In this document: positions 6,709-32,981 of the stretch, in pieces
How positions within the stretch are numbered: the first letter of the stretch is position 1
Layout of the letters: the number at the start of each line of letters is the position of its first letter
Sequence record: SRR31156797_786
Reading direction: 5' to 3' (one strand)
Length of the DNA stretch: 41,746 bases
Made by a program: the position numbers and the translations under genes
The notes under the pieces: model-generated
Seen by the model: only the letters and a program-made list of their open reading frames with translations
Told to the model about the DNA's origin: nothing
Database searches by the model: none

Positions 6709-6802
6709 TGGAAGCAGCGATTCGCTGTTAGCCTTTGAAATGGGGCGGTGGAGCCGTATTTCTAAGAGCAACCTTTTTTTATCTGATGAGAGGAGCCGAC
6801 AC

Positions 6803-7522
6803 ATGCGCGTCTATATCGGTTTTGACGATACCGACAACAAAAATGCCAACCGCGGTACCGGAAAACTGGCCCGGTGGTTTGAAAAAGAGCTGCCGGAAGG
6901 GTGCCGCATGTGGGGGGTGGTGCGTCAGCAGCTTTTGCTCCATGACGATATCCCCTACACGTCCCACAACAGTTCCGCCTGCGTGGTGGTGGACGTGCCG
7001 GATGGCGCCATGCTGGGGGAATTGACCGAAAAGGCGGTTGCCCACGTGGAGCGGCATTCCCTCGTGGGGAGCGACCCCGGGGTCTGTGTGGCCTCAAACG
7101 GCGACAACGACCTGTCGGTCCTGGTTGATTTCGGTCGTCTATGTACCCGGGAGGTGGTTTCACAGAAAGATGCCCTTAACGCGGCTTCCGGTGTTCACCT
7201 TTCCGGACACGGGGGCACCAACGACGGTATTATCGGGGCAGCCGCCGCCGTGGGGCTGACCGCTTCCGGGCGTAGCGGCCGGTTCATCGAATTCGGCGGG
7301 CTTCGGAACTTCCCCGAGCAGGTGACGGTATCCGAACTGGAGCAGTCCCGCATCCTCGTCATGTCCCTGGAACGGGATGCTCAACCCCCGGCACCCGACG
7401 ACCGGGTTCATACCCATAACTGGTTGCGGCCCAGGCTCTGGGGAAACCGGGCCGTCCTGGTTGCCCATAAAAAAGGTGAAGGCCTTTGGGAATCCCTGGG
7501 GAAAAAGCAAAAAAAGGGATAA
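6803..7522 (+). CDS. Stand-alone TiaS (tRNA-Ile2 agmatinyltransferase) N-terminal-like protein
   Basis: AGGAG RBS. Motifs IGFDDTD...GTG, IPYTSHNSSAC, SDPGVC and GIIGAAAAVG resemble the TiaS catalytic N-terminal domains. Only 239 aa, too short to include the tRNA-binding OB/Zn-ribbon domains. Confidence 0.75.
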   Translation: MRVYIGFDDTDNKNANRGTGKLARWFEKELPEGCRMWGVVRQQLLLHDDIPYTSHNSSACVVVDVPDGAMLGELTEKAVAHVERHSLVGSDPGVCVASNGDNDLSVLVDFGRLCTREVVSQKDALNAASGVHLSGHGGTNDGIIGAAAAVGLTASGRSGRFIEFGGLRNFPEQVTVSELEQSRILVMSLERDAQPPAPDDRVHTHNWLRPRLWGNRAVLVAHKKGEGLWESLGKKQKKG

Positions 7523-7559
7523 TGATCGCGATTTTATTGCACGATCCAGATTCAGTCAC

Positions 7560-8945
7560 ATGAGCCCTGTTATAGAGATAAGGGATTATTCCTATCGGTA
7601 TCCCGGGAGAGAGAAGTGGGCTTTATCCCGTCTGTCTTTATCGGTGGCGCCCGGCGAATGCATCTGCCTTTCGGGTCCGTCGGGTTGTGGCAAGAGCACC
7701 CTCTTTTTGGCCCTCAAGGGACTTTTGAAAGACGGCCGCGAAAAAGGGACCATACGGGTTGGGGGGAGCAACCGGCTTCCTTCGGCGGGGCTGGTATTTC
7801 AAAATGCCGAAAGCCACTTCCTTTGCACCAGCGTTGAGGATGAAGTGGCCTTCGGGCCGCAAAACCTCGGGCTCACCCCTCGGGAAATTGAGACCGCCGT
7901 CCGGAAAAGCCTGGATGCGGTGGCGCTGAGCGGTTTTGACACCCGAAACGTGGAAACCCTCTCCGCCGGACAGATGCATCGCCTGGCCATTGCATCGGTA
8001 CTCTCCGCATCCCCGGATATGCTGCTTCTGGACGAACCCACGGCCCAACTGGATGCGGACGGAAAGAGTCGCTTGACGGAACTGTTGAGTGGATTGAAGG
8101 CGGCGGGGCATACCCTGCTGATTGCCGATCATGAACTGGGTCCTTTTAAACCCCTGGTGGACCGTTTTGTCTTCATGGATGGGGGATGTATCAAAGGGAT
8201 TGGTCGCGAATTCCCTGCCGAATATACCCTTTCCCCCCCGGGGCGCCATGGTGGAATGCCGACAGGGGCGGGCGGAACCCATAATCCCCTGCTCTCGGTG
8301 AAGGGACTGTTTTTCACGGGCCGTAATGGCCGGCCCCTGTTTGATAATTTGAACCTGAGTCTCTTCCCGGGGCGGCTTGTGTTCATTTATGGTCAGAACG
8401 GCGTGGGTAAATCGACCCTCTTAAAATGCATGGCAGGGCTTATCCGGCCCGAGGCCGGCAGCATTGAAATGGCGGGAGCGGGGCTCCCGGGATTGGACAA
8501 GCTTTTCGGGAAAATGGGATTCCTTTTTCAGAACCCCGAACGGCAGCTTTTTGAAGATACGGTCCGGGATGAAGTGGGGTTTTCCCTTAAACGGATGGGA
8601 CTTTCAGCCCGGGATATCGAACCCCTTGTTGCCGAAGCCCTTGAAGTTTTTCATGTGGATCATTTGAAAGACCATTCACCCTTGACGCTCAGTTTCGGGG
8701 AACAGCACCGGGTGGCGCTGGCATCGGTGATGGCACCCCGGCCTGAAATCCTCATGCTGGATGAACCTTTTGCGGGTCTCGATTTTGCCCGGAGAAAAAA
8801 TATTTTGAAGATCCTGTCCCGTTTGTGTAAATCGCGGGGAACAACGGTGGTCATCGCATCCCACGAGTTTTTGCCTGAGGATACCTGGGCCCATGAAACG
8901 TTTGTTTTGAAGGAGGGGCATATTGAAAAAATGGAAACGTTCTGA
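7560..8945 (+). CDS. ECF transporter duplicated ATPase (EcfA-EcfA' fusion)
   Basis: Two Walker A motifs (GPSGCGKS, GQNGVGKS), two LLDEP/MLDEP Walker B motifs, FQN Q-loops, VEDEVAFGPQNLG. Confidence 0.9.
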   Translation: MSPVIEIRDYSYRYPGREKWALSRLSLSVAPGECICLSGPSGCGKSTLFLALKGLLKDGREKGTIRVGGSNRLPSAGLVFQNAESHFLCTSVEDEVAFGPQNLGLTPREIETAVRKSLDAVALSGFDTRNVETLSAGQMHRLAIASVLSASPDMLLLDEPTAQLDADGKSRLTELLSGLKAAGHTLLIADHELGPFKPLVDRFVFMDGGCIKGIGREFPAEYTLSPPGRHGGMPTGAGGTHNPLLSVKGLFFTGRNGRPLFDNLNLSLFPGRLVFIYGQNGVGKSTLLKCMAGLIRPEAGSIEMAGAGLPGLDKLFGKMGFLFQNPERQLFEDTVRDEVGFSLKRMGLSARDIEPLVAEALEVFHVDHLKDHSPLTLSFGEQHRVALASVMAPRPEILMLDEPFAGLDFARRKNILKILSRLCKSRGTTVVIASHEFLPEDTWAHETFVLKEGHIEKMETF

Positions 8946-9597
8946 AAAGGGTGGTTTCAAGGGAGATGCGTTTCAGTATTGCGCCGGTAACTCCCCCATC
9001 CACCGGTTGGGGCCGGGGTGGAAAATCATTCTGGCGGTTGCTTTTTCAGCCGCGGCCATTGCGGCCCGGGAACCGTGGATGCTGTTGTCCCTTCTGGCCG
9101 TGAACCTGGCTTATTATCTCTCCGCTCATCTGGGCGTCATGAACCTGTGGCGGGATATCCGGCTTTTCCTGGTCCAGATGGCCATTATATTGGTGCTTTA
9201 TCTGATCAAATACGGGGTCGCGGAAGGTCTCTGGCCGGGCTTGCGGACCGGTTGTCAGATCCTTCTCCTTTTTCTGCCGGGAACGGTCCTTCTTCGAACC
9301 ACCCAAGGGACGCAAATGATGGGGGGGCTAAAAAAAATCATGCCGGAACGCTTGAGTTTTCTCCTCTTCACCAGCCTGCGATTTGTCCCCTTCTTTGCCC
9401 GTGAGACCCGGGAGATTGCCATGGCCCAACAGCTTCGCGGGGCACCCGTGGGCTTTCGTTACGCCTGGAACCCCCTCCACTGGAAGGACCAGTTCCATTG
9501 CCTGATGATCCCCCTCATGGTACGGGCCCTGAAAACCGCCAGGTCAGCGGCCCTTTCCGCCGAGGCCCGGGGTTTTGAAGAGCGGCTCCGCCCATGA
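8923..9597 (+). CDS. ecfT: ECF transporter transmembrane T component
   Basis: SPIHRL..WK start, LRFVP, conserved QLRG and EARG motifs. Exact start uncertain. Confidence 0.9.
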   Translation: MKKWKRSEKGGFKGDAFQYCAGNSPIHRLGPGWKIILAVAFSAAAIAAREPWMLLSLLAVNLAYYLSAHLGVMNLWRDIRLFLVQMAIILVLYLIKYGVAEGLWPGLRTGCQILLLFLPGTVLLRTTQGTQMMGGLKKIMPERLSFLLFTSLRFVPFFARETREIAMAQQLRGAPVGFRYAWNPLHWKDQFHCLMIPLMVRALKTARSAALSAEARGFEERLRP

Positions 9598-10127
9598 AAA
9601 AATTCACCCTTCAGGAAGCCCTCTGCCTGGCATTCTGCGCCTGCTTCATCGTCATTACCCGGGCCGTATTTCGGTTGCACTTAAATATTCCCGGGCATGC
9701 CATGTTTTTCACCATGTTCTTCCTGATTCTGGGGAGGGGTTGTGTCCCCCGAATGGGCGCTTCCACACTGATGGGACTCCTGGCGGGCCTTTTGTGCACC
9801 CTGTTGGGTATGGGCAAGGGGGGACCGTTGATTATCCTGAAATTTCTGGTCCCCGGCCTCATCGTTGACCTGGCGGGCCTTTTTTCCAAGGGACTGGCCG
9901 GAAGCTATGTGGCTTGCGCCATCGTGGGCGCCCTGGGGGCCGCCAGCCGTTTTTTGACCATCATCGTGGTGGAATGGGTCATCGGAATGGAGTGGGATCT
10001 CATCCTTCAACACGCGCTGATTTCATCAGCCTGCGGCGTTGTTTTCGGGGTCTTGGGTTCTTTGATGGCACCCCCCATTGTGCGAAAACTGACGGCCCAT
10101 GGTCTGATTGCCCCGCGCCCTGCATAG
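9594..10127 (+). CDS. Putative ECF substrate-specific S component, substrate unknown
   Basis: 177 aa, about 5-6 hydrophobic helices, ATGA-coupled to ecfT. Confidence 0.75.
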   Translation: MKKFTLQEALCLAFCACFIVITRAVFRLHLNIPGHAMFFTMFFLILGRGCVPRMGASTLMGLLAGLLCTLLGMGKGGPLIILKFLVPGLIVDLAGLFSKGLAGSYVACAIVGALGAASRFLTIIVVEWVIGMEWDLILQHALISSACGVVFGVLGSLMAPPIVRKLTAHGLIAPRPA

Positions 10128-20518: not shown

Positions 20519-21271
20519 TTATTTATTTTCATTCAACAACCGCATGATCTGATCAACTCCCAAAACTTTGCCTTTGGAAACAACCTTGCCGTTAATGATC
20601 AGACCCGGGGTGATGTGAACCCCCTTTTTCGCAAATTCATGAATATCGGTTACTTTGACGATTTTGACGCGATTGTTAAGGCCGAGCCGCTCCACGGCCT
20701 CAAATGTATTTTGATAAACCTTTTCGCAGTTTGCGCAACCCGGTCCAAGGACCTCTAGAATGGTTTTAACGTCAATATTTTGATTCGTTTCCGAGTACGC
20801 CTGGGACAACCAGATTTTTGTTTGGTCTCTGGAGGGAACAGACCCCTGGTGATGGACCCGGCCGGAAATAACCAGTACCGGCGTCATCATGATGCCAAAG
20901 CTCAAGGCTTGTTCCTGGCAGGGCTTCAGCATTTCGTCCAATTCCGGGGTCCATTCCGCTACCGCAGGGCAACAGACCTCTTCCGCTTTCTCTTCGGAAG
21001 CATTTTCAGGCGCACCCACAAGCTGATGGATGCGACGCCAATCCATCTCTATCTTTCCCTTTCGGGCCACATCCTTGGCGGTGCCCGGCGTAAGCCCCAG
21101 GGTGTTCGCAAATTTCACCACCTCCCTGTCCGTATAGCTCAAATGCCTGATCCTGACGGACAAATCCAATTCATTGGCCAGTTCATGGACCATATTACCT
21201 AAATAATGGCACCTCGGGCATGGGGGCTCGGTTCCGATGATCCAAATCTCATCCTCATTTTTCATGGCCAT
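20519..21271 (-). CDS. Two-domain thioredoxin-like (redox-active disulfide) protein
   Basis: GTEPPCPRC...GIMMTPVLVI and VLGPGCANC...GVHITPGLIINGKVVSKGKV. Confidence 0.85.
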   Translation of the reverse strand: MAMKNEDEIWIIGTEPPCPRCHYLGNMVHELANELDLSVRIRHLSYTDREVVKFANTLGLTPGTAKDVARKGKIEMDWRRIHQLVGAPENASEEKAEEVCCPAVAEWTPELDEMLKPCQEQALSFGIMMTPVLVISGRVHHQGSVPSRDQTKIWLSQAYSETNQNIDVKTILEVLGPGCANCEKVYQNTFEAVERLGLNNRVKIVKVTDIHEFAKKGVHITPGLIINGKVVSKGKVLGVDQIMRLLNENK

Positions 21272-21301
21272 TTCTCCCTGTGCATCTGAAATTTTAGAGT
21301 C

Positions 21302-21525
21302 CTAAATTTCAACTTCACCTTGTAAATATTTTACGGCTTTCCCGGAAATTTTGATACGATGACGCCATACTTGGGTGCGAAAAATCGCGTTACAAAATCA
21401 TGACGTTCAGAAATGGATTGCATGAGGTCATCCGGAAGCCACTCATCCAGCGGGCAGACGGCAGCGGGATTTCCCTGGAACGGCTTGTCTGCAAATGCAT
21501 CAATTTGATATAGGGTCAATTTCAT
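21302..21525 (-). pseudogene. PhzF-family gene collapsed by two internal deletions
   Basis: N-terminus YQIDAF...GNPAAV is joined to mid-gene DFVTRFFAP. The C-terminus RIKISGKAVKYLQGEVEI-stop follows in another frame. Confidence 0.85.
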
Positions 21526-21596
21526 GGGTGCTCCTTTAAAAATCCGATCTCGAATTGAGCTGGGCCGGGTAAATGCTCAATCATAAGGAGATTCTC

Positions 21597-22403
21597 TTAC
21601 CATGGGCAGCGCGACGGTGAAATTCGGCGTATTGCAAGTTGCACCATTTTTTGCACTTCAGGATGAGGATCTTCTTGTGCCTGAATCAAGACGGTTGAGA
21701 CGCTTGGTAGGCCAATGATCCCTAAACTTCTCGCGGACTCCCATCTAAAGGCCGGAATCGGGTGACGGAGAAGATATTCTGTTAGAATCCGGATCACCTC
21801 TTTATCATCGAACGCTTCGAAGGCTCGGATTGTCTTCCAACAGATCACGTCATGTTCCTGATATGTCGGCAATACGCCGATTAGGTGGGGAAGCGCGGTA
21901 GAATTGTGGAAATATAAAGAAATATGGCCTATTGCATCCAGCGCTTGCTCAATTTGAAAAGGTTCACCTGTATCAAGAACCGGTAGAAGGAATGTTAAGG
22001 CAGGCTCTCCGATCCGAATGAGTGTTCTTGCCGCCATATCCCGTGGGAGAGGATACCCCCCCTTATAAAAGCCTTTTTTCGGAAGAGTGTTTTCGTGATT
22101 GTTTCCGATCCTTCCCAAAAGTTCAATTAACGGGGGAATGGACGCTTTTCCCATGGCCCCGAGAGCTTCGCATACGGCGAGTTTCGGATAGAGTTTTTCT
22201 TCTTTCCGCAATGCTCGACATAGAGGCATGACCGCTTGGCGGCATTTTCGTTGCCCGAGGATTTTGGCTGCGGATGTTCTCACTTTTGGATTCTCATGAC
22301 GTAAATGGGCCATGAGCGTTCTATCGTCCTCCCGGAAAAAGCCTTGATCTTCTTCCGGCGATGTTTGTCCTCTTGTCTGACGCTGTTTGTTTAATTGATT
22401 CAC
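21597..22403 (-). CDS. HEAT-repeat protein (start uncertain)
   Basis: VRTSAAKILG, AVCEALG, RDMAARTLIRIG, RWESARSLG. Confidence 0.8.
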   Translation of the reverse strand: MNQLNKQRQTRGQTSPEEDQGFFREDDRTLMAHLRHENPKVRTSAAKILGQRKCRQAVMPLCRALRKEEKLYPKLAVCEALGAMGKASIPPLIELLGRIGNNHENTLPKKGFYKGGYPLPRDMAARTLIRIGEPALTFLLPVLDTGEPFQIEQALDAIGHISLYFHNSTALPHLIGVLPTYQEHDVICWKTIRAFEAFDDKEVIRILTEYLLRHPIPAFRWESARSLGIIGLPSVSTVLIQAQEDPHPEVQKMVQLAIRRISPSRCPW

Positions 22404-22530
22404 GGTGATTTATGTTTAATTATGTGAATATTTGTAGACCGACAACATTTTTACCGTTATTTGCCGGGACCGATTTTAAACAAAGAGGAAAAACAAACCT
22501 TGCGTAGCGCTCAAGTCAAACGATTTGTTT

Positions 22531-22600
22531 TCATATTTTGATCATCTGCATTCCCGGAGCATTCTCGGGACGAATCTCGAAACCGTTCTGTTCATATTGA
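22531..22600 (-). pseudogene. Possible C-terminal fragment of a GNAT acetyltransferase
   Basis: YEQNGFEIRPENAPGMQMIKI-stop resembles GNAT C-termini (YxxxGF). Followed directly by an attC-like arm. Confidence 0.4.
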
Positions 22601-22704
22601 CAACGGATGCCGCCAATGTTGCCGACCTTCTTCATTGAAGGATACGGCGCGGCGGTTTTTAGCCGTTCCCTCTATGGCAATCTACCCTTATTCGTTATAA
22701 ATTG

Positions 22705-23154
22705 CTACTTTTGAATATCCTGTCTCACGTTCTTTTCAATGTCGATGATCCTTTTTCTTATTTCATCCGGAATAGGTGCCTTTTTATTTTTTTGATAATC
22801 GAATGTAACCAGAACACCTTCCCCCGATGCTGCTATTTTCTTAAACTTATGACTGATTACGGCATAATTCATTATAAAACGATCTTTTTCCATGGTATCC
22901 ACTTTTGCGCCCACTGTAACATGGTCCGGATAGGTTAGCGGGATTTTGAATCTGCATTGAGTGGATGCCAGTATGGGGCCGATACCGGTTAGATTCATGA
23001 CCTCAAAAAAATCAATTTTTTCGAAATATGAAATTCTCGCACTTTCAAAATGTTTGAAATATACCGTATTGTTCACATGTTGAAAAGCGTCCAAATCGCC
23101 CCATGCGATCGGAATGTTAATTGTTACAGGATAGGCTCTCATGAGTTCTTTCAT
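22705..23154 (-). CDS. Acyl-CoA thioesterase (4HBT hot-dog fold)
   Basis: WGDLDAFQHVNNTVYFKHFESAR; PLTYPD. Confidence 0.93.
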   Translation of the reverse strand: MKELMRAYPVTINIPIAWGDLDAFQHVNNTVYFKHFESARISYFEKIDFFEVMNLTGIGPILASTQCRFKIPLTYPDHVTVGAKVDTMEKDRFIMNYAVISHKFKKIAASGEGVLVTFDYQKNKKAPIPDEIRKRIIDIEKNVRQDIQK

Positions 23155-23193
23155 TTTTTTTCACCAGTTGGAATAATTTTTGCTCATTTCGTT

Positions 23194-23252
23194 TCATAAA
23201 TCTCGGATCAGGCGCGGCCATTATTTGCAGTCGCCGGCATCCGCCGATAAGG
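23194..23252 (-). mobile_element. Degenerate attC-like palindrome
   Basis: Bulged stem: CGGAT(23204-08)/ATCCG(23239-43) and GGCG/CGCC. Ends TCATAAA / GATAAGG are each one change from the AAC / GTT core triplets. The core resembles 22646-22666. Confidence 0.45.
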
Positions 23253-23311
23253 GTCGCCTATGATTTTATTCGGTTTGACCCCGTTTCACCTCCTGCTCCG
23301 GACGGCAATTA

Positions 23312-23340
23312 AATCCCGCAAGGAATTCCCTGCGGGGATT
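23312..23340. terminator. Putative terminator-like hairpin
   Basis: AATCCCGCA-AGGAATTCCC-TGCGGGGATT, downstream of the Cache-domain gene. Confidence 0.4.
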
Positions 23341-23473
23341 GAATATTCAAGGTTTTTGGCCACGTCTTAAAGAGACTTTCCGTTGCATTGTTTCCCGGCC
23401 TCTTTCAACGCGTCGTTTTAACCATTGTGATCCTGCCGGTCATTGGCGGCATCGGTAACCCTGGCCTTAATTA

Positions 23474-24445
23474 TTAATCATTTTCTTCCGGGTAGTATTT
23501 TTTTATACATTTTTCGCAAATACTATGGCTAAATTTAGCTTCTGAATGATTAGAAATGTATTTCTCAAGTTGACTCCAAGAACCTTTGTCGTCGCGAATT
23601 TCTTTACAGTGCATACATATGGGTATAATACCTGTTAATGTTTTGATTTCATCTAAAGCTCTATGAAGTTCCGCGTTGGCATTTGATAATTCCGCAGTAC
23701 GGTTTTTAACCTTGATTTCAAGTTGGTCCTTATATTCAAATAATTTAGCTTCAGCATGCTGACGCATTTTTATCGCATTTAATGCCTGATGAATTTGGTA
23801 CCAAGCGATGAGTGAAACAATAATAAGAATAATAATGGAGGCAATTTTTAATTTTCGTGACATCAAAGCGACTTCCGCCTTGACATCTTCAAGATATATT
23901 CCTGTGCCGATTATCCACCCCCAAGGCTTATATCCTTTGACGAATGATAGTTTGGGAACAATCCGGCTATGGTCGTCCATCCATTGCCACATGTAAGGTA
24001 CGTAACCTTGTTCATTCTGTGTAGTCATTTTGACGAATTCCATGAAAAGCTTAGTCCCGGCTGGGTCAGTAAAATCTGACATGTTTTGCCCTATGAGATC
24101 CGGTCTATAGGGGTGCATAATAAGCGCGGGGGTAAAATCATTGATCCAAAAATAATCTTTGCCGTCTACTCCGTATTTCATGGCTTTCAAATGATTAATG
24201 GCAATTTGTTGGGCCTCTTTAAGCCTGTATTTTCCTGAAGCGACTTCTCTGTTGAGAAGGTCAACCATATTCCAGGAAGAATTGACAAGTTCCTTTAACA
24301 TTACTTTTTTTTCTTCAAGTAAATTTTTTTGAAACCTTGGAAGAAAGAGATAAAAGGAAGAGAAAATGAAGAGGGAAATCGCCACTAATGCAGGAAAGAC
24401 AATACGAAATAGTTCCTGAAAACTGTAATGATTTTGTTTGCGCAT
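23474..24445 (-). CDS. Membrane sensor: TM, single Cache domain, TM, coiled coil, putative Zn-binding C-terminal domain
   Basis: DYFWIND...MHPYRPDLIG...GYVPYMW...PKLSFV..YKPWGWIIGTGIY; C-terminus PICMHCKEIRDDKG.W...FSHSICEKC. Confidence 0.88.
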   Translation of the reverse strand: MRKQNHYSFQELFRIVFPALVAISLFIFSSFYLFLPRFQKNLLEEKKVMLKELVNSSWNMVDLLNREVASGKYRLKEAQQIAINHLKAMKYGVDGKDYFWINDFTPALIMHPYRPDLIGQNMSDFTDPAGTKLFMEFVKMTTQNEQGYVPYMWQWMDDHSRIVPKLSFVKGYKPWGWIIGTGIYLEDVKAEVALMSRKLKIASIIILIIVSLIAWYQIHQALNAIKMRQHAEAKLFEYKDQLEIKVKNRTAELSNANAELHRALDEIKTLTGIIPICMHCKEIRDDKGSWSQLEKYISNHSEAKFSHSICEKCIKKYYPEEND

Positions 24446-24844
24446 TTGAAGCCCTTTCTCTTTTAGGGCCGAACGGTTTGGCCGCCAGCGTGAGATTTCG
24501 AGCCACCGGACGGGTCTTGGGGCCCGGTGGGGGCTCGACCCACTTCTGCGGAGAGAAGGATTTCAAGGGCCTTTGAGAGGGCCGGGAGATCCTTTTCCAT
24601 CCTTCCGTGCATCTCGATTCGGTTCCTTTTACCCCCATCCCGCGGGACCGTGGAAGATCCCGTTGAGCGTGTGAAACCGCGGGGTCAACAAATATTAATA
24701 CGGCATTTGAGCTTATCCCCTCTTCGGAGCTGTCCAGACAATGGGATATGCACCATATGGCATATTGATATCATAGAAAGATTAGCATGTTGACTTACAA
24801 TCTGAGGTAACGTCCCCATTTCCGAAAGTTGAAGCGAGGCGCCT

Positions 24845-25261
24845 TTAATTTCCCATGCGCTTTAGGACCATATTATAGGCCTCAGCATTTTTTGCATTCT
24901 CCTCGTCGACAAAAGCATTGTAAACGGATTTTCCTGTCATTCGGCCATCCGGTTGCATCTCAAGCTTAGCGGTATACAGCTTGGTGCCGCTTTCAATAAC
25001 CATATAAACGGTTTTGCCGTCCACGACGCCGTTTACATTGTATGGCCCCATGGTCCCTTTGAATTTGCTTCCATCCTGCGAAAAAATACCGGTCCCCCAT
25101 CCGCCGGCCATGTAGTCGCCGCAGTCCCATTTGCCGGAAATATTAACATCCGCAACCGTTTGATTTTTCCCGTCAAGCCACGCTTCAGTTCTGTCGGGCA
25201 TGATGGTCCTGCACGACACAAACAGGCCAACCACAGCAGCCAGCAATAAAAGTTTTTTCAT
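24845..25261 (-). CDS. Hypothetical lipoprotein
   Basis: MKKLLLLAAVVGLFVS-C lipoprotein signal; AGGAGG RBS. Confidence 0.8.
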   Translation of the reverse strand: MKKLLLLAAVVGLFVSCRTIMPDRTEAWLDGKNQTVADVNISGKWDCGDYMAGGWGTGIFSQDGSKFKGTMGPYNVNGVVDGKTVYMVIESGTKLYTAKLEMQPDGRMTGKSVYNAFVDEENAKNAEAYNMVLKRMGN

Positions 25262-25429
25262 GGTTCCCCTCCTTCTCTTATGTGCTTTACAACGTTGTCT
25301 TATGACCGTTCATTCCTGCATCCCTTGTCCCTCTTGATCCGGTTCATGGTAATGTTTACCCTTTTTAAGTCCCTTCATGTAAAAGGGGATGTTTGTCAGA
25401 TTCTAAGTTGGAAAGTTAAGGTCCCCCCT

Positions 25430-25458
25430 AATTTTATGTTTTGACATTGGGGGGAACC
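25430..25458 (+). repeat. Left 29-bp inverted repeat (IS-end-like)
   Basis: AATTTTATGTTTTGACATTGGGGGGAACC; 27/29 match to the reverse complement of 26373-26401. Confidence 0.85.
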
Positions 25459-25481
25459 ATGGTCATTGTTCATTTGTAAAT

Positions 25482-26333
25482 TCAAAGATCGGCTGAACAG
25501 GTCCAATCATGATCTCCGCGGCCATTTGCGACACCACGGGTCCACAGCGCTTCCAAGGCTTCAAACATGCCGGGATCTGTTCCGATTTCGCGGCACAACT
25601 CGACAAATTGCCTCGCTTCCAATACCACCTGGGTAAGCGTCGCCTGTACCCGTTTGGGATCCGACGCGAAACCTTCGTCATTCGTTTTCTTCAAAGTGTC
25701 GTCGACAACAACCGGGATCACCTGTTTAATGAAATTCTCGTAACTCTCAAGGGGAAAATTCTCTGCATGGCAGAATTTGACTCCCTGGCATAGCCCCACA
25801 ATCATCGGAATGACCGCAAACAGACTCGCATTTGCCAGTGTTGAAGCAAAGCCCGGGTTCTCATCCACGAACACCGTGCCTCCCAATAACTTCAAAACAG
25901 ACTTATTATCGTCGAATGCACTTCGACTCCCACTATATAGAATCTGTAGTTCGGGCGTGCCGATTTGGCTCGGGTAGCCCCCCACTGCACCATCAATGTA
26001 GGCCGCTCCTGATGACGTGACAATGTGGTGTAGTTCTCTAGCCTCCCACGGCTTGCCGTTGCTCAGCTGCACCACAGTTTTACCCCGGAGCTTTGACTCT
26101 TGTTCCTTAAGAAACGCTTTGGCAGGGGCATATTCCAATATGCTGATTATTATAATTGGACTTGCCTCTATGGCAGCGCCGACCGACTCTGCCACGATGA
26201 TATTAGACTGAGCCAGTGCCCGGGCTTTCTCCGGCGCCCGATTCCATATGGTGAGGTTCTTGCCGCCGGCGGCCAGGACTCGGATCATGGCAGATCCCAT
26301 CTTTCCGCAACCTAAAAATGATATCTCGCTCAT
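25482..26333 (-). CDS. NAD(P)-dependent oxidoreductase, imine reductase / beta-hydroxyacid dehydrogenase fold
   Basis: GGAGGAG RBS; FLGCGKMG, IWNR.PEKA, VVQLSNG.P, YIDGAVGGYPSQIG. Confidence 0.85.
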   Translation of the reverse strand: MSEISFLGCGKMGSAMIRVLAAGGKNLTIWNRAPEKARALAQSNIIVAESVGAAIEASPIIIISILEYAPAKAFLKEQESKLRGKTVVQLSNGKPWEARELHHIVTSSGAAYIDGAVGGYPSQIGTPELQILYSGSRSAFDDNKSVLKLLGGTVFVDENPGFASTLANASLFAVIPMIVGLCQGVKFCHAENFPLESYENFIKQVIPVVVDDTLKKTNDEGFASDPKRVQATLTQVVLEARQFVELCREIGTDPGMFEALEALWTRGVANGRGDHDWTCSADL

Positions 26334-26372
26334 GCTACGCTCCTCCCTTATATTTTTCGAAATAGGGCCTAA

Positions 26373-26401
26373 GGTTCCCCCCAATGTCAAGACAGAAAAT
26401 T
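26373..26401 (-). repeat. Right 29-bp inverted repeat (IS-end-like)
   Basis: GGTTCCCCCCAATGTCAAGACAGAAAATT. Confidence 0.85.
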
Positions 26402-26918
26402 GACAGAGCTAAGCTAGGCGGGTCGGCCGAGCCGAGCTGAGCCCCGCCGAAGCTCAAACGGGTCACGATTGTAGCATCCTGAGACGGTACAAGACCCTTC
26501 CTTCCCATAAGAGGGGACGTCCCTATTCCCCACGCTTTCATTTGATAGGGTTAGGAATATGGGTTGTTCGGGTGCCATCTTTTCCTATGAGGCTGTTGTG
26601 CCGACCCTTTCAGCGTTTGTGGTTTTGATGTGATTTCATATGTTCCAAAGATCAATATCTAATAGGTTCCCAAATTGATGAAAGTTTGACGTTCCACATC
26701 TTGAAAACTATGCCGATCTGGAGCATGACATGCACATTCTGAGGTTTTTTTTCCATTGGTGAGCCTTCTGAGCAAAGGATGAATGGTTGGTTAATTCGGC
26801 AATTTGCAGATAAGGAATCAACGAAAAATAGCTTATGTCAGGAGATATCTTATGTCAAAGAAAAACGGTTTTGAGGAATCTCATTGCAGTAATTGATTCG
26901 TGTCCTTCAAAAGGCGGG

Positions 26919-26963
26919 AAAAAAGGGTAGGGCGGACCGGGCGGCGCCATAAGCCCCGGTCCG
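26919..26963 (-). terminator. Putative terminator of the spy/cpxP gene
   Basis: Stem CGGACCGGG(G)C / GCCCGGTCCG just after the stop codon, with a T run shortly downstream on the minus strand. Confidence 0.55.
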
Positions 26964-26971
26964 GGAAGGTA

Positions 26972-27454
26972 TTACTCTGATGTTGTCTGGAGCCATGTAT
27001 TCATCATGGTTTCTCGAAATTCCGCATGTTTTTTAAAGCCGTTCATACCCTTTTCCATTTTCTCTTTCATGAGCTGCCGCTGCTCCTCAGTCAAGACCGC
27101 CCTGATCTGATTTGCAATTTTGGCTTTTGTGACCATGCCGTCTTCCATCAGCGCGGTTGCCTGTTGGAAGGCCGCCCGGACATTCTCTTCATTGAACGTC
27201 TCGGCCTTTAAAACCGGCGCCAGGATGTCTCTCACCTCTTCACGTTTTTGCCTTGCGGTCTCCCGCTCGGTTTTTGTTGCCGCCATGATCTCGGCGATCT
27301 GTGCTTTTTGCGCGTCGGTTAAATTAAGTTCCATCAAGGCGCGCAAAGGGCCCGGTCCCGGACCCATGCCAAACATTTGGGCCATGACGGCCGTACCCCC
27401 TGCCAGGACCATGACCATGGCAATCACCATTATTAGAACTTTTTGTTTTTTCAT
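26972..27454 (-). CDS. Spy/CpxP family periplasmic chaperone
   Basis: Signal peptide; two LTxxQ motifs (LNLTDAQK, VLTEEQR); AGAGGAG RBS. Confidence 0.9.
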   Translation of the reverse strand: MKKQKVLIMVIAMVMVLAGGTAVMAQMFGMGPGPGPLRALMELNLTDAQKAQIAEIMAATKTERETARQKREEVRDILAPVLKAETFNEENVRAAFQQATALMEDGMVTKAKIANQIRAVLTEEQRQLMKEKMEKGMNGFKKHAEFRETMMNTWLQTTSE

Positions 27455-27737
27455 CGTCTTTCTCCTCTTAATTGCATCAATAAAATTCTTATCATATCTT
27501 CTTCATCCGTCGCCATAAGAAGGCCACGCGGCCGCATTCGTTTGGCTTTTTGGGTGGGCGCCCTGTTTACCTGTTACATCGCCAGGTGCCTTAAAAAGGT
27601 TACGGTTTTTCTTTTCAAACAGCCTCCTCCCGCAGCTTTTAGGAATGTCCGGCTCTTTTTATGTGATTCCTCAATGAATATGGTAGGTTTTTATCGGGTG
27701 CCGGGCGGGGAGGGCTCTCTATGATCCGTAATATATG

Positions 27738-27857
27738 CCGCTCAGGTCGGCTTCAATATCATTTATCAAGGACCTGGCCTCAGGGAGCGGGTCCGCGCCG
27801 GCATTTCACCGGCTTCCCTCATTTAGGCCCCATGGGGGGCGCCGAACATCTGAACGG
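27738..27857 (-). ncRNA. Atypical or degenerate cobalamin-riboswitch-like element
   Basis: Minus strand reads CCGTTCAG...GGCGCCCC..GGGGC.AAATGAGGGAAGCCGGTGAAATGCCGGCGCGGACCCGC...GACCTGAGCGG. The closing helix CCGTTCAG/CTGAGCGG can pair. The 3' half departs from the canonical CTGT...AGCCAGAAGACCTG. Confidence 0.65.
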
Positions 27858-27957
27858 GAGGCCTCTCTACCATGGGAAGAATAATCGTCAATGGATTTTC
27901 CCTAAAGCCCTTATTGAGGAAGCCCTTTCCCAATTGCCTCACTTAGGTTCCTCTCCC

Positions 27958-28773
27958 TTATGGTGGACACCCTTCAATGGCATCGATGAGGGCCCGCATA
28001 TGTCCCTTTTCCGCCTGGGCGATGGACAGGAAAATTTCCGAGCCCTCGGATTCGGACAATTGATGGGCAAGGTTGCGATACAAATCATAGGCGGTGTATT
28101 CAATTTTTAAGGCCATTTCCAGCATGCGAAGGCAAGTTTGCTCTTCCTCCCATGCCAATTGCGCCATGGCATCATTCAGAGGCAATCCGCCTTCCAGCAC
28201 TTCCCCGTCAAGTTCCTCGAATAGCTTTTCAAAGGGCGCCAGTTGGGTATCCCTCCGTTCCCAGGCCCCATGGACGGTTTTAGCGTGGGCTATTTCAGCC
28301 CCGGCCAGGCGCCCGAACACCTCCGACCATGGTGGGTCCGGGTAAGTGTCATTGATGTGGGTATAAAAACGGAATGCCCCCTTTTCCAGATTCATGGCCG
28401 TCCTGAACATTTCCAGGGGTCCTTGTCCCTCAAAGAGTTTTACATTGGGTTGATGGGAAACCGTGGCCCGATCCCAGGCCATGATGCCTCCGCTCAAGTT
28501 GTAAATGTCTCCCGCTCCCTGAATTTCCTCTTCGGCCATGGAAGCCGCGGCCAGGGATCTGCCGCCCACATGACAATAAAATATCAGCGTCTTGTCCGAT
28601 GGCAGGGAGTCCACGGTTTGAACCAGTTCGGGCAGGGGTATCAACCGAGCGCCGGGAATATGAAATTCCTCGTACTCACCCGGTTGGCGGACATCCAGGA
28701 GCAGATAGCTTTTTTCATGATGCTGCTGGATGAATTGACGGAGTTGCGTAGGCGTCAGATCTTTGATGGCCAT
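27958..28773 (-). CDS. Rhodanese domain + ferritin-like (rubrerythrin-type) fusion protein
   Basis: LLDVRQPGEY...HIPGA, YCHVGGRS, LSGGIMAW; then AMNLEKGAFRFY...EIAH and ALKIEYTAYDLY...EKGH. Confidence 0.9.
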   Translation of the reverse strand: MAIKDLTPTQLRQFIQQHHEKSYLLLDVRQPGEYEEFHIPGARLIPLPELVQTVDSLPSDKTLIFYCHVGGRSLAAASMAEEEIQGAGDIYNLSGGIMAWDRATVSHQPNVKLFEGQGPLEMFRTAMNLEKGAFRFYTHINDTYPDPPWSEVFGRLAGAEIAHAKTVHGAWERRDTQLAPFEKLFEELDGEVLEGGLPLNDAMAQLAWEEEQTCLRMLEMALKIEYTAYDLYRNLAHQLSESEGSEIFLSIAQAEKGHMRALIDAIEGCPP

Positions 28774-28858: not shown

Positions 28859-31800
28859 TTACAGATAGTTGAGCGCCACAAGGCTTCCCCCGCCGCCCAG
28901 GAAGAGGGCAACGGCGCGAACACAGGGTTGTTCAAAGAAAGGGCAAAATGCCCCTTTGCGCATTGATTCGATGGCATGGTGCATCATTTTCATCTGTTGG
29001 GATATCGCCTCCTTGTTGGGCGCTTGCAGGTTCATCTGTATTTCCCACAGTTTGTTCAATACGGTTTCCCTCGCCTTTTGCGCGGTATTTCGGAGATTTA
29101 CCGCGCAATAGACCGAGAAGGAGAGGCCCAGCATAATGACGATGAGCAATCCCAAGGGCATATCCCACCTGTCGAAGTAGCGAAGGCGGGAAGCGCCCAG
29201 GATAAGGATCACTATGAATGGGTAGTATACGAACCGGCCCGCGGTTTCGGAAATCTTTACGATCACCTGGATATCGATCCATTCGTTCAGGTAATAGGCA
29301 TCCATGTTCAATTTCTTTGAGATATTACGTGTCGCCTCCTTCGGCCAGATATTATCTAGCTGTGAGAGACGGCGGATCAGCCCGCTACTCGTAATGGTGA
29401 GATCGACAACCCAGAACAGCAACAATATAAAGAACGGGATCGATGAAAAAATCGCAATCGTGTCAACCCAGGAACTGACAATGCCGCGATATGGTACAAA
29501 CGGTTTTCCGAACATATGGATCATAAAGTAACACATGAAAAAATAAATGAAGCCAAGAGGAAGTATCCTAATAAGGCGCCTTTTCCAGGTTGTGCATTTT
29601 TTATACTCATTCCAAACAGACCATGCGGTTTTTGTCCCATCGGCTCCCCCTCTTGCTGCCGTATCCCTTTTCACACATGCAAAATGGTTTGATATCGGGT
29701 TGAAAAACCGATCGGATAATTCTTTGTCGCATATGCGGGCCCTTATGGAACCGGTGATTAGAAAATATAGTGAAAGGCCCCAGGCCAGGAACCTCAAAAA
29801 CTCGGAAGGCCAGATACTGATACCTTCAAAGAAAGCAAAGGGCTCGCCCGCATCAAACTGGGGTCTCAAGAACTCAGGCAGCCAGATGCTTTTACCTTCT
29901 GGGGCGTACGGATCAAATGGGGGGGCGATGATTATTTTCATCACGGCCACGAGCAGAATCAGAAACAGAATCAAAAAACAGGGCGACAGCCGATACATTT
30001 TGTTTGCTTCTATCCCTTTGACGTTCTCCCTTTTCCAAAATCCATAATAAAGCATGAGAGAGAAAATGGCGAAGCATAAGGCTGTCCCAACACACCACCG
30101 CATATATTTGGAATGCATCCAGACATTCCCATACCCCGGGGGAATGGGATGAATACTGTTGCAGGAATCGGCAAATTTTTCACAAAAAAAGCTCGCATCT
30201 TTATGTTGTCCATCCTTACACCCGAGGGCAAATGCACCGCTTCGACCCACTTCGAAGATTCTGGGGGAACCCAGCCACTTGTTCTCCTCCAAAGAGGTCA
30301 GTTTACAGCCGCCCAGCGCTATTTTGGTGCTCAAAAAAAGAGACGTCTGATAGTTGTCCCGAAAGGGGGGAATATTCTTTTGCAGGTTTTTGTTTAACCT
30401 CAGACCGAAGTTGGAGGCAATGATGAGATTTTGAGTCCACAACAATTCATCGGGGTGCAACAACCTGGCATCAATGTCCGTGGTGAAAAAGATGACATCG
30501 GGGAACAACTTGTGCATGGCCTGGAGCACAAGCAGCTTGTCATAAACGTCGCTGCCGAGTACGCCGATGGCCTGAATCCCTCGTCCTCCAATATCCTTTG
30601 ATATTTCTTCATCTAATTCCTTTAGCCTGAAGGCCAAGCGACGCAGATAATCGAATTGACTTCGACCTGCGGGCCGTTCGATATCCTCCTTTTCCGAAGC
30701 TGTCTCTTTTTTGTTCGAAGCGCCGGTTATGGCGGCTTTTACTTTGGTTTTCCCCGGAACCTGACCATCGATCCCCCGCATGTAGCTGAATTTATGAATA
30801 TATTCGATTTTATCCGTTTTCAAACCGTTCTTTTCCACTATTTCCGCTATACTTCTTATAAAAGCTTCGGGTAAGTTGCGCCCATAAACAGTGTCCCATT
30901 CTGAAATGAGCGCCATGTGAACTCTTTTCTCATCAATTTTTTTGGGTATCATCCCCTCGATTCGAAGGCCTAACTCTTTTACCAGTAAATCGGTAAGGAA
31001 TTTATCGGGACCGATGGTACGGAAAAACCTCAGCCCTTTTTTGCCGTTTATGACGCACTTTCCTTCAATCACCGCAGCCAAATCGTTGGGCGCCTCTTTT
31101 TTTCCTTTTTCTCCGGGTATCAGTTTTTCCAGGTCGACGGTGGCGGCCCATGAGAAAATCTGAACGTTTTTAAGATTCTCTTTATGTTTCCAATCCAGCT
31201 TTTCCTTTCGGATCATGCCCTTGAGGTTTGTGGAATCGGCCGGTCCTAGTATGCGGTATTCCAGTTGCGGGGTATTTTTATGGTTTTCCTTCGATTGGAT
31301 TTTAACCGCCTCGTTTAGCATACCTGTAAAATCGCCCAATTTCCGGAGAGGACTCCCTGAGAACCTGTGGTCATTGAGCCACAACACAAGAACCGGTTGT
31401 GAAGGCTTTTCCGATTCAAACCATTCGTAGGGCACAAGATCCATAACCCATGATTCATGCTCTTCCGGTTTGAAAAACCCGTAGAAGGAAGGTGCCATGA
31501 GGTATGATTCATAGGGGTAAGCAGGGAGTTCTAAATTCTCTAAATATCCGATATGCTCCGATTCCTCGGGAACATAAAAATGTTCGCCCAGGGCCGATAG
31601 AACGGCATACCGAAACCTTATCCGGCTCTCAACATCCTCCGCATAGGGCCCGCCGCTCACCATAACGCCCAAAACCACTATCTTTTCCTTCTCTTTATGG
31701 ATGATTTGATTTGCAAGATCGGTGATGTTATGATCTTCAGGATCAGGCGTCATGTCACCCTTATGGGTCATGACGGCGGAGAAGGGATCCTGCCAGAGTC

Positions 31801-31972
31801 TCGATTGAACATCCTCTCCCACATGTAGGGCGGATCTGATTTTTTCGGGGTTTTGGGGTCTCGATGCCTTGAATGGCACTTGAGGGATAACGAGGATGCC
31901 GAGAATTAGAGCGATAACCGCCAAAGCCCCCGATATGGGTATTCCCGATATGCTTTTTTCGTCATTTCCCAT
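28859..31972 (-). CDS. Large uncharacterised membrane protein (N-terminal TM, about 590-aa extracytoplasmic region, multi-TM C-terminus)
   Basis: 1037-aa uninterrupted ORF; hydrophobic segments at the N-terminus and across the last 400 aa or so. Confidence 0.85.
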   Translation of the reverse strand: MGNDEKSISGIPISGALAVIALILGILVIPQVPFKASRPQNPEKIRSALHVGEDVQSRLWQDPFSAVMTHKGDMTPDPEDHNITDLANQIIHKEKEKIVVLGVMVSGGPYAEDVESRIRFRYAVLSALGEHFYVPEESEHIGYLENLELPAYPYESYLMAPSFYGFFKPEEHESWVMDLVPYEWFESEKPSQPVLVLWLNDHRFSGSPLRKLGDFTGMLNEAVKIQSKENHKNTPQLEYRILGPADSTNLKGMIRKEKLDWKHKENLKNVQIFSWAATVDLEKLIPGEKGKKEAPNDLAAVIEGKCVINGKKGLRFFRTIGPDKFLTDLLVKELGLRIEGMIPKKIDEKRVHMALISEWDTVYGRNLPEAFIRSIAEIVEKNGLKTDKIEYIHKFSYMRGIDGQVPGKTKVKAAITGASNKKETASEKEDIERPAGRSQFDYLRRLAFRLKELDEEISKDIGGRGIQAIGVLGSDVYDKLLVLQAMHKLFPDVIFFTTDIDARLLHPDELLWTQNLIIASNFGLRLNKNLQKNIPPFRDNYQTSLFLSTKIALGGCKLTSLEENKWLGSPRIFEVGRSGAFALGCKDGQHKDASFFCEKFADSCNSIHPIPPGYGNVWMHSKYMRWCVGTALCFAIFSLMLYYGFWKRENVKGIEANKMYRLSPCFLILFLILLVAVMKIIIAPPFDPYAPEGKSIWLPEFLRPQFDAGEPFAFFEGISIWPSEFLRFLAWGLSLYFLITGSIRARICDKELSDRFFNPISNHFACVKRDTAARGGADGTKTAWSVWNEYKKCTTWKRRLIRILPLGFIYFFMCYFMIHMFGKPFVPYRGIVSSWVDTIAIFSSIPFFILLLFWVVDLTITSSGLIRRLSQLDNIWPKEATRNISKKLNMDAYYLNEWIDIQVIVKISETAGRFVYYPFIVILILGASRLRYFDRWDMPLGLLIVIMLGLSFSVYCAVNLRNTAQKARETVLNKLWEIQMNLQAPNKEAISQQMKMMHHAIESMRKGAFCPFFEQPCVRAVALFLGGGGSLVALNYL

Positions 31973-32030
31973 GGCAGCCCCAACGCGCTATGATGGTGCC
32001 TCCCTGCCGTGAATTGTTGGAAGCAATCGG

Positions 32031-32981
32031 TCAATCCCGCACCTCAAATGAGGCCCCGTCCCGTTGCAGGCTGTCAACCACCTTTAAGGCCCTGATCAAT
32101 CGTCCGGAGTATTCGTCCACATTGCCGGGACCATTGTACCTTCTTGTAAATGCCCGCCAGTCCGACCTTTCGATAAACCGCAACAGGTTGTTGGCCCGAA
32201 CAAACCCGAAAAAACCGGCCACCTGTTCCTCGCAAGATCGCTGAAAGGCCAAAACCATTTCCCGCTGGCTCGGATGAATGGTTACTTCCCAATTAAATCC
32301 CATGAGTTGGGGCAAACCGTAGCTGCACGATGCCAGGGCGGCCTCTTTATTCACCCCATAGGCACGTTCCAGGCTGGCCCATTCTTGTTGTTGTCCGCCC
32401 CGTTTCCATCTGACTTCCCGTCCGGATCGCCGCCGGAAAACATGGGGTTCATAGCGGATGATGATGAGGCCCGTGGCCGGATCATAGGCCCTCCCCGATT
32501 CCACGGAAAACACGGCCAGCGCGCTCCGTGTTGAGATGCCATGGGTTTCGGCTTGTTGGCGGATCGCTTTGCCGTAACGGTTCCATAGACGGCAAATGCG
32601 TCTTTCCTCGGGACTCCTTCCCATGATTTCAGGCCCCGGCGGTTCGCTCACGGGTATTTCGGCGGGCGGAAAAGCCAAATCTTCTCCTATCTGCTTTAGC
32701 ACGTTGGGAACCGGAACGCTGAAGACCTGTCTAAGACGTCTCAAGGTGTCGGGACCCAGCTTGCTGTCCGGCGGGTCAAGCCCCCATCGGTGTTGAAAAT
32801 CCTCGACGGCTTCGGAGAAGGCGATCCAGTCGATGACGTTCAGCTCATCTTCGTCAACGATGAAGTCCCGGTCGAGATCGCCCCGGAGAAGGATGGCATA
32901 CCCCTGCCATTCCGCGGGTATATCCATTAGATTCCAGTGTCTTCCGACGGCTCTACGATTGTAGGAGGCTGGAGACGTCAT
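32031..32981 (-). CDS. N-acetylmuramidase (DUF3380-type) with an N-terminal peptidoglycan-binding-like motif
   Basis: AVFSVESG, IRYEPHVF, SYGLPQLMGFN, WRAFTRRYNGPG; AVEDFQ...GL..D..LGPDT; AAGGAG RBS. Confidence 0.88.
   Translation of the reverse strand: MTSPASYNRRAVGRHWNLMDIPAEWQGYAILLRGDLDRDFIVDEDELNVIDWIAFSEAVEDFQHRWGLDPPDSKLGPDTLRRLRQVFSVPVPNVLKQIGEDLAFPPAEIPVSEPPGPEIMGRSPEERRICRLWNRYGKAIRQQAETHGISTRSALAVFSVESGRAYDPATGLIIIRYEPHVFRRRSGREVRWKRGGQQQEWASLERAYGVNKEAALASCSYGLPQLMGFNWEVTIHPSQREMVLAFQRSCEEQVAGFFGFVRANNLLRFIERSDWRAFTRRYNGPGNVDEYSGRLIRALKVVDSLQRDGASFEVRD

Follow-up and report, generated by a model that had tools for sequence, protein, structure and literature searches.

How does the conserved front of a cobalamin riboswitch come to stand upstream of a gene for a Spy/CpxP-type periplasmic protein, and can the RNA that begins with it still sense anything? 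The locus lies on the minus strand of a 41,746-nucleotide stretch of DNA (sequence record SRR31156797_786), the whole of which is called the window here. An earlier note, made from the letters of the window, had taken it for a variant of the cobalamin riboswitch that acts on the Spy-like gene, its ligand possibly altered or its behavior constitutive; as a fallback it had offered an orphan left behind after the loss of an original target. We hold with high confidence that the element is a deletion scar, in which the front half of an ordinary cobalamin riboswitch survives and its back half has been lost together with genes for the lower ligand of B12.

Read directly on the minus strand, TTGACG occupies 27891-27886, upstream of the aptamer-like core. 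The core then runs through the hairpin GCCCCCCATGGGGC (27840-27827), GGGAA (27818-27814), the hairpin GCCGGTGAAATGCCGGC (27813-27797) and GCGGACCCGC (27796-27787), and the letters that follow are TCCCTGAGGCCAGGTCC...GAAGCCGACCTGAGCGG. The pairable segments CCGTTCAG and CTGAGCGG, and likewise CAGGTC and GACCTG, stand where the earlier note had placed them. Comparison with covariance models, protein families and related genomes (G003, G185 and G169) divides the locus and its surroundings into the following parts.

27958-28773, minus strand: gene for a protein with rhodanese and rubrerythrin domains (Pfam), upstream of the scar
27864-27906, minus strand: promoter-like leader of the former riboswitch unit, with TTGACG, a 16-nt spacer and TAGAGA (27869-27864)
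27787-27863, minus strand: 5' half of a cobalamin aptamer (P1 5' strand, GCCCCCCATGGGGC, GGGAA, GCCGGTGAAATGCCGGC, GCGGACCCGC), from RF00174 and relatives
27787-27790, minus strand: deletion junction, CCGC, a microhomology assignable to either side, from the edges of homology
27719-27790, minus strand: remainder of a BzaE-like gene for a B12-binding radical SAM protein, its last 23 codons (PLPEARSLINDIEADLSGIYYGS) and TAG (27721-27719), from tblastn
27707-27718, minus strand: first 11-12 nt past the stop codon of the former gene, where blastn matches end at 27708 (G003) and 27707 (G185)
27455-27612, minus strand: the Spy-like gene's own conserved upstream region, from homology to G169, outside the riboswitch remnant
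26972-27454, minus strand: gene for an LTXXQ / Spy-CpxP-family periplasmic protein of 160 aa (PF07813, 43.3 bits; PF13801, 42.7 bits)

Searches with covariance models place the resemblance to a riboswitch entirely in the front half of the element. At Rfam gathering thresholds, no family matched anywhere in the window. A permissive local search with the cobalamin model, RF00174, reached 27.7 bits (E 3.8e-5) over 27665-27861 on the minus strand, below the gathering score of 31.5, in an alignment with a confident 5' core, 95 unaligned nucleotides, AAACCUACC in the place of the B12 box and many non-standard P1 pairs. Limiting the search to 27725-27900, a restriction chosen so that the 3' end favored in the earlier note (GACCUGAGCGG) had to serve, gave 25.4 bits, also under the gathering score, with 32 unaligned nucleotides and many non-standard pairs. 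Two different and equally poor 3' halves can thus be fitted, and it is the 5' core that carries the score. In the window element, the 5' half corresponds to model positions 1 to ~78 at high posterior probability. As a control, the 5' half of the intact riboswitch of G185, cut at the same CCCGC, was scored alone; it covered model positions 1-78 as a 3'-truncated hit at 40.5 bits. Since that half by itself scores so well, the whole of the window's score comes from its 5' half, and it is therefore the score of a bare 5' half minus the penalty that the model sets on a missing 3' half.

Within the retained half, the conserved core is complete: GGGAA, the GGUG-N5-CC hairpin and GC..CCCGC are all present, and the core is identical to those of the canonical riboswitches of G003 and G185. 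Beyond it, no GCCACTG, CCACTG or ACTGT, as would be expected of a P5/P6 domain with its GCCACUG motif, occurs on the minus strand between 27900 and 27650, and both candidates for the B12 box (model consensus AGCCAGGAGACCUGCC), AAACCUACC and CGACCUGAGCGG, give many non-standard pairs. A SECIS_1 match spanning the junction was rejected, as it belongs to a eukaryotic model and stays under the cut-off of that model (26.5 versus 35 bits).

The missing half of the riboswitch is found in two Desulfatiglandales relatives, G003 and G185. Related genomes were picked by means of the window's phosphoglycerate mutase, which is 83-89% identical to those of metagenome-assembled genomes (MAGs) labelled Desulfatiglandales, Desulfobacteraceae or Deltaproteobacteria. 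In G003, window positions 27876-27787 correspond to C3:293778-293692 (80% identity), which lies inside a canonical cobalamin riboswitch scoring 97.5 bits, and window positions 27779-27708 correspond to C3:286551-286479 (82%), on the same strand and 7.1 kb downstream of the first piece. The same two pieces recur in G185, where 27906-27787 matches L125 562-684 (77%) and 27759-27707 matches L125 7857-7909 (89%), with a cobalamin riboswitch at L125 611-829 scoring 107.7 bits. For the aptamer half, the 80% identity to G003 and 77% to G185 apply to 90-124 aligned nucleotides that include non-core leader. Matches were found in 12 of the 209 genomes of the order, and the 10 besides G003 and G185 share just 26-43 nt, mostly conserved core. 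The earlier note's claim of a B12-element 5' core is thus borne out both by the local RF00174 match and by the identity to two canonical riboswitch leaders. In a further genome, G002 (C7), two cobalamin riboswitch matches stand 2.4 kb apart (L082 1389-1574 and L084 1449-1575, both on the minus strand), one of full length at 109.6 bits and the other at 37.8 bits with the P6 region of the model almost entirely skipped.

Between the two pieces, G003 and G185 carry the same five genes in the same order. The first encodes a ThiC/BzaF-like radical SAM protein of the ThiC family; it passes the ThiC equivalog models (for NF009895, 570 bits with a cut-off of 410; for TIGR00190, 527.7 with a cut-off of 460) and reaches 507.9 bits against a cut-off of 700 with the BzaB exception model TIGR04386. 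It is followed by CobT (TIGR03160, 410 bits, above the cut-off of 319), by an O-methyltransferase fused to a DUF2284 domain (BzaC-like), by a B12-binding radical SAM protein nearest to BzaD (TIGR04385, 415.9 bits against a cut-off of 450) and by a second B12-type radical SAM protein of 522-527 aa (BzaE-like). Neither a BzaE nor a BzaF model appeared among the NCBIfam matches of the unit's proteins, and the gene names in the two genomes are in part provisional. Judged by gene order and domain families, the units appear to fit the bza layout given in passages of the published accounts, bzaA-bzaB/bzaF-cobT-bzaC-bzaD-bzaE (PMC8123684; also PMC6461909). The BzaD-like gene of G003 (L085 4481-5853, minus strand) is present as two open reading frames, one of 271 aa with the B12-binding part and one of 180 aa with the radical SAM part, which may reflect a frameshift or a sequencing error; in G185 it is a single frame of 457 aa. 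A transposase gene follows the intact riboswitch-bza unit in both genomes, of the DDE type in G003 (L085 235-1710, minus strand) and of the IS91 family in G185 (L125 8584-9507, plus strand), a hint that the DNA carrying the unit is mobile or unstable.

The second piece of homology explains the unusual 3' half. The five operon products of G003 were compared with the whole window by tblastn, as six reading frames in view of the split BzaD-like gene of that genome. Residues 505-527 of the last operon protein matched 27790-27722 on the minus strand, with 17 of 23 residues identical (E 7e-6), and every other match of these products in the window had E > 0.4. The three tails read PLPEARSLINDIEADLSGIYYGS in the window, PLPRAGSLVKDIESDLTGIYYGS in G003 and PLPRAEPLVENIEADLTGIYYGS in G185, the latter two finishing in DLTGIYYGS, and the stop codons are in register (TAG at 27721-27719 in the window). 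At the DNA level the tail is 82% identical to that of G003 and 89% identical to that of G185. Differences among the proteins are mostly conservative (V/I, T/S, S/A), as would be expected if the sequences diverged while still coding. The supposed B12 box GACCTGAGCGG coincides with the codons Asp-Leu-Ser-Gly of this tail, and the second B12-box candidate of the model alignments, CGACCUGAGCGG, is likewise its D-L-S-G codons in the part homologous to G003 and G185. The earlier note had pointed to an odd 3' half with about 24 extra nucleotides and a competing CAGGTC/GACCTG hairpin; these letters are there, but all of them fall inside the 23-codon BzaE-like tail. By this homology, both the B12-box look-alike and the odd 3' half are the last 23 codons of a deleted gene and not elements of RNA structure. 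In sum, the letters and the 5' core are real and beyond chance, and the 3' features are not riboswitch features, so the original observation is confirmed in part.

We propose that an ancestor of this Desulfatiglandales-like organism carried a promoter, a cobalamin riboswitch and, behind it, a five-gene bza-type operon, whose products would have made the benzimidazole lower ligand of B12 anaerobically and activated it. A single deletion of ~7.13 kb would then have taken out all that lay between the aptamer's CCCGC and the final 23 codons of the operon's last gene. The missing segment measures ~7,129 nt on G003 or 7,141 nt on G185. Past CCCGC, which ends at 27787, the intact riboswitches read CGCTGTAAG... 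and the window reads TCCCTGAGG...; homology to the gene tail sets in with the Pro codon CCG (27790), and the CCGC of 27790-27787 is common to both sides. That this overlap is kept suggests that the deletion probably took place between short matching sequences. Left over would be the leader (27864-27906), the aptamer 5' half (27863-27787) and the last 23 codons and stop of the BzaE-like gene (27790-27719); of the riboswitch-bza unit, the window retains ~120 nt from the start and ~84 nt from the end.

The cobalamin pocket cannot take shape unless P5/P6, the B12 box and the P1/P3 3' strands are present. An RNA that lacks them all would be unable to form that pocket, and from what is known of the fold, the loss of the pocket-forming parts argues that the RNA would not be a ligand sensor. 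No corrinoid binding by the remnant RNA is predicted, and it most likely does nothing as a sensor. The retained half is undamaged, with both hairpins and every conserved core base intact, which fits a recent deletion and would also fit selection on a residual role. The Spy-like gene would be an unrelated neighbor, reached at most by unregulated read-through from the leftover promoter.

The earlier note had allowed that an intact canonical riboswitch with B12 genes in relatives would make the element a remnant, and G003 and G185 carry just such a riboswitch and such genes. Its fallback of an orphan left after target loss thus finds support in that the operon is lost in the window and intact in relatives, but the riboswitch was halved by the same deletion and did not decay as a whole; of the earlier reading, the fallback part alone, a remnant after loss of the target, is supported. 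The flanks of the G003 and G185 units are not syntenic with the window, and no relative examined was found to carry an intact unit in the corresponding chromosomal position, next to the rhodanese/rubrerythrin gene. Both the unit and the scar are absent there from G005, the closest syntenic relative, and 14 kb of its sequence gave no Rfam match. Since the intact unit was not found at this position in any genome, a single, simple deletion in place is offered as the most economical reading and not as an event that has been demonstrated.

Set against the deletion scar is the reading with which the earlier note led, a working riboswitch of the cobalamin clan with a shortened or novel 3' half, sensing a corrinoid or another ligand and controlling the Spy-like gene. 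We give it very little credence and regard it as largely refuted. The canonical 5' core is what the reading would lead one to expect, as are the pairing of CCGTTCAG with CTGAGCGG and a possible compact fold made of GGCCUC/GAGGCC and GGGA/UCCC. The letters of the closing helix can indeed form 8 pairs, but a helix as good or better arose in 780 of 2000 shuffles of the 3' part, which puts it at the level of chance, and no homologue with the same junction was found that could show covariation in P1. The minimum free energy fold of 27720-27900 is likewise ordinary (z -0.81, with 38 of 200 shuffles folding as well), and the compact fold was rejected on the ground that its energy is not better than that of the shuffles. 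The RF00174 score under the gathering score, the lack of a GCCACTG motif and a supposed 3' half that is homologous to coding sequence, with frame and stop conserved, all count against a variant sensor. Nor does the setting suggest a corrinoid-related gene under its control: the next gene is LTXXQ/Spy-like, and bza genes are absent from the window. No second record with the junction was seen among the 209 genomes of the order, and a junction scan of metagenome contigs gave one unrelated match, apparently in coding sequence. Without a P6 domain, a homologous B12 box or a real P1, the headline claim of the earlier note fails. It is about equally hard to credit that an assembler joined two unlinked genome pieces, even though the window looks like the product of a metagenome-type assembly and the close relatives recovered were all MAGs. 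What was joined here is the two ends of a single unit, correctly ordered and oriented, which a random misjoin would not give, and a separately built 82-kb Logan contig of run X1, which may be the source sample itself so that its support for the junction would not be independent of that sample, spans the site. Over 27000-28600, at a depth of 39, that contig has 0 differences from the window and neither alternative joints nor loose ends; a second run, X2, had no contig on the stretch. As contigs drop rare variants, a minority allele without the deletion could go unseen.

Two further possibilities accept the scar as non-sensing and differ in what the surviving front may do. One is that the promoter and leader add constitutive, B12-blind transcription to the Spy-like gene. 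The scar and the gene are on the same strand ~265 nt apart, a simple scan found no terminator-like site on the minus strand between 28000 and 26900, and both the TTGACG -35 and the TGG-TAGAGA region can be aligned to the leaders of intact units. The homology to G185 begins at window position 27906, and at the promoter-like site the bza leaders of G185 and G003 read TTGACA and TGGTATAGG; the TTGACG to which the earlier note had drawn attention is thus upheld both by its position and by its alignment with the TTGACA of these leaders. The conserved -35 and the lack of a visible terminator make unregulated read-through into the Spy-like gene possible. We nonetheless think this an unlikely account of the locus, since the Spy-like gene's own upstream region is conserved in G169 without a riboswitch, so that the remnant is not needed, and since the -10 candidate is weak (3/6) and a simple sigma-70 scan found no promoter and did not flag 27864-27906; judged from the alignment, promoter activity there is putative. 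The other possibility, to which we assign a slimmer chance, is that the half-riboswitch has been kept because its promoter and two-hairpin leader drive or stabilize B12-independent read-through to the Spy-like gene, or because they give rise to a short stable RNA. If true, the kept leader would be a case of promoter and leader capture after gene loss.

The Spy-like gene forms a unit apart from the scar. Its orthologue in G169 is 74% identical at the amino acid level, and window positions 27612-26935 are 81% identical over 684 nt to L114 12594-13277 of that genome, including 158 nt upstream of the start codon; the homology breaks off abruptly at window position 27612. In the 17 kb of L114, no Rfam match at E <= 0.01 gives evidence of a riboswitch near the G169 orthologue, and no bza operon is present, the nearest trace being one DUF2284-domain match 5 kb away. 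Because G169 shares the leader without the riboswitch, the leader of the Spy-like gene travels with the gene and the remnant is no part of it, and a link between the two is not supported. Downstream of the Spy-like gene, the ~580 nt of 26391-26971 hold just short overlapping open reading frames of 51-71 aa.

No other copy of the junction was found among the 209 genomes of the order. The one locus that fitted a junction-spanning pattern in the scan of metagenome contigs (L001) lies in a G+C-rich record and was rejected, since it looks like coding sequence that fits the pattern by chance. In G173 (C197, L119 1501-1522), 22 nt identical to window positions 27785-27764 were also taken as chance, as the match runs antisense within an unrelated 456-aa open reading frame, and no bza homology was found around it in the 3-kb locus. 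When the DNA of 26972-28773 was compared with 121 genomes of the order, with 2 candidates scored per genome, short pieces only were recovered. Neither the element nor the Spy-like protein had a counterpart in four further close relatives (G126, G072, G045 and G127), and in a scan of genome contigs with that protein, 106 stretches fitted the pattern and 0 were confirmed as relatives.

The surroundings of the scar are themselves variable. In G005 the order is RecO, ATP-grasp, nitroreductase, iPGM, HflX and the rhodanese/rubrerythrin gene (86% amino acid identity), followed directly by the homologue of the window gene at 20519-21271, and all window DNA from 21.3 to 27.95 kb is missing. Its absence from G005 marks this part of the window, scar and Spy-like gene included, as variable DNA. 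Relative to G005 (L095), additional DNA flanks the window's rhodanese/rubrerythrin gene on either side. The block at 21300-27950 contains, besides the scar and the Spy-like gene, genes for an NAD-binding reductase, a lipoprotein and Cache-domain, thioesterase and HEAT-repeat proteins, and the block at 28860-32980 contains a muramidase and a 1037-aa protein, whose reading frame (28859-31972, minus strand) has several predicted hydrophobic stretches and no Pfam family at E <= 0.01. Elsewhere in the window, at 4669-10127 on the plus strand, a TonB-dependent receptor, a double ABC ATPase, a CbiQ-type ECF T component and a small open reading frame form a cluster for which corrinoid or metal uptake is a possible role.

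For riboswitch discovery, the locus carries a caution: a canonical 5' core with an odd 3' half in front of an unrelated gene can be a truncated remnant, and here a sub-threshold covariance-model score together with comparison to relatives settled the choice between remnant and variant. The locus also records the loss of an operon for the anaerobic benzimidazole lower ligand in one Desulfatiglandales-like lineage, apparently by a clean deletion flanked by microhomology. Such a loss bears on which cobamide the organism can make or must salvage, and it adds a small data point to the patchy distribution of cobamide synthesis that passages of one published account describe (PMC6461909).

Set beside known systems, the element is of a known kind in a broken state, and it implies no new mechanism. 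The gene downstream has been rightly described as Spy/CpxP-type rather than as a B12 gene, in that it passes the Pfam models LTXXQ (PF07813, 43.3 bits against a cut-off of 24.3) and Metal_resist (PF13801), but it differs from the named members of the Spy/CpxP/ZraP family by falling far under the NCBIfam equivalog cut-offs for Spy (49.3 versus 174) and CpxP (31 versus 160). The bza operon was reportedly first described, by Hazra et al. in 2015, downstream of a cobalamin riboswitch; the intact units of G003 and G185 share its gene order behind such a riboswitch, whereas the window has none of the five genes. With RF00174 (clan CL00101), the window's 5' half shares a P2-type hairpin, GGGAA, the GGUGAAAUGCC hairpin and GC-GGA-CCCGC. 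In contrast to members of that family, the window has nothing of what lies beyond CCCGC, namely ACUGUAA, P6 with GCCACUG, the B12 box AGCCAGGAGACCUGCC and the 3' strands of P3 and P1, and the element is a truncated pseudo-element, not a working member of RF00174.
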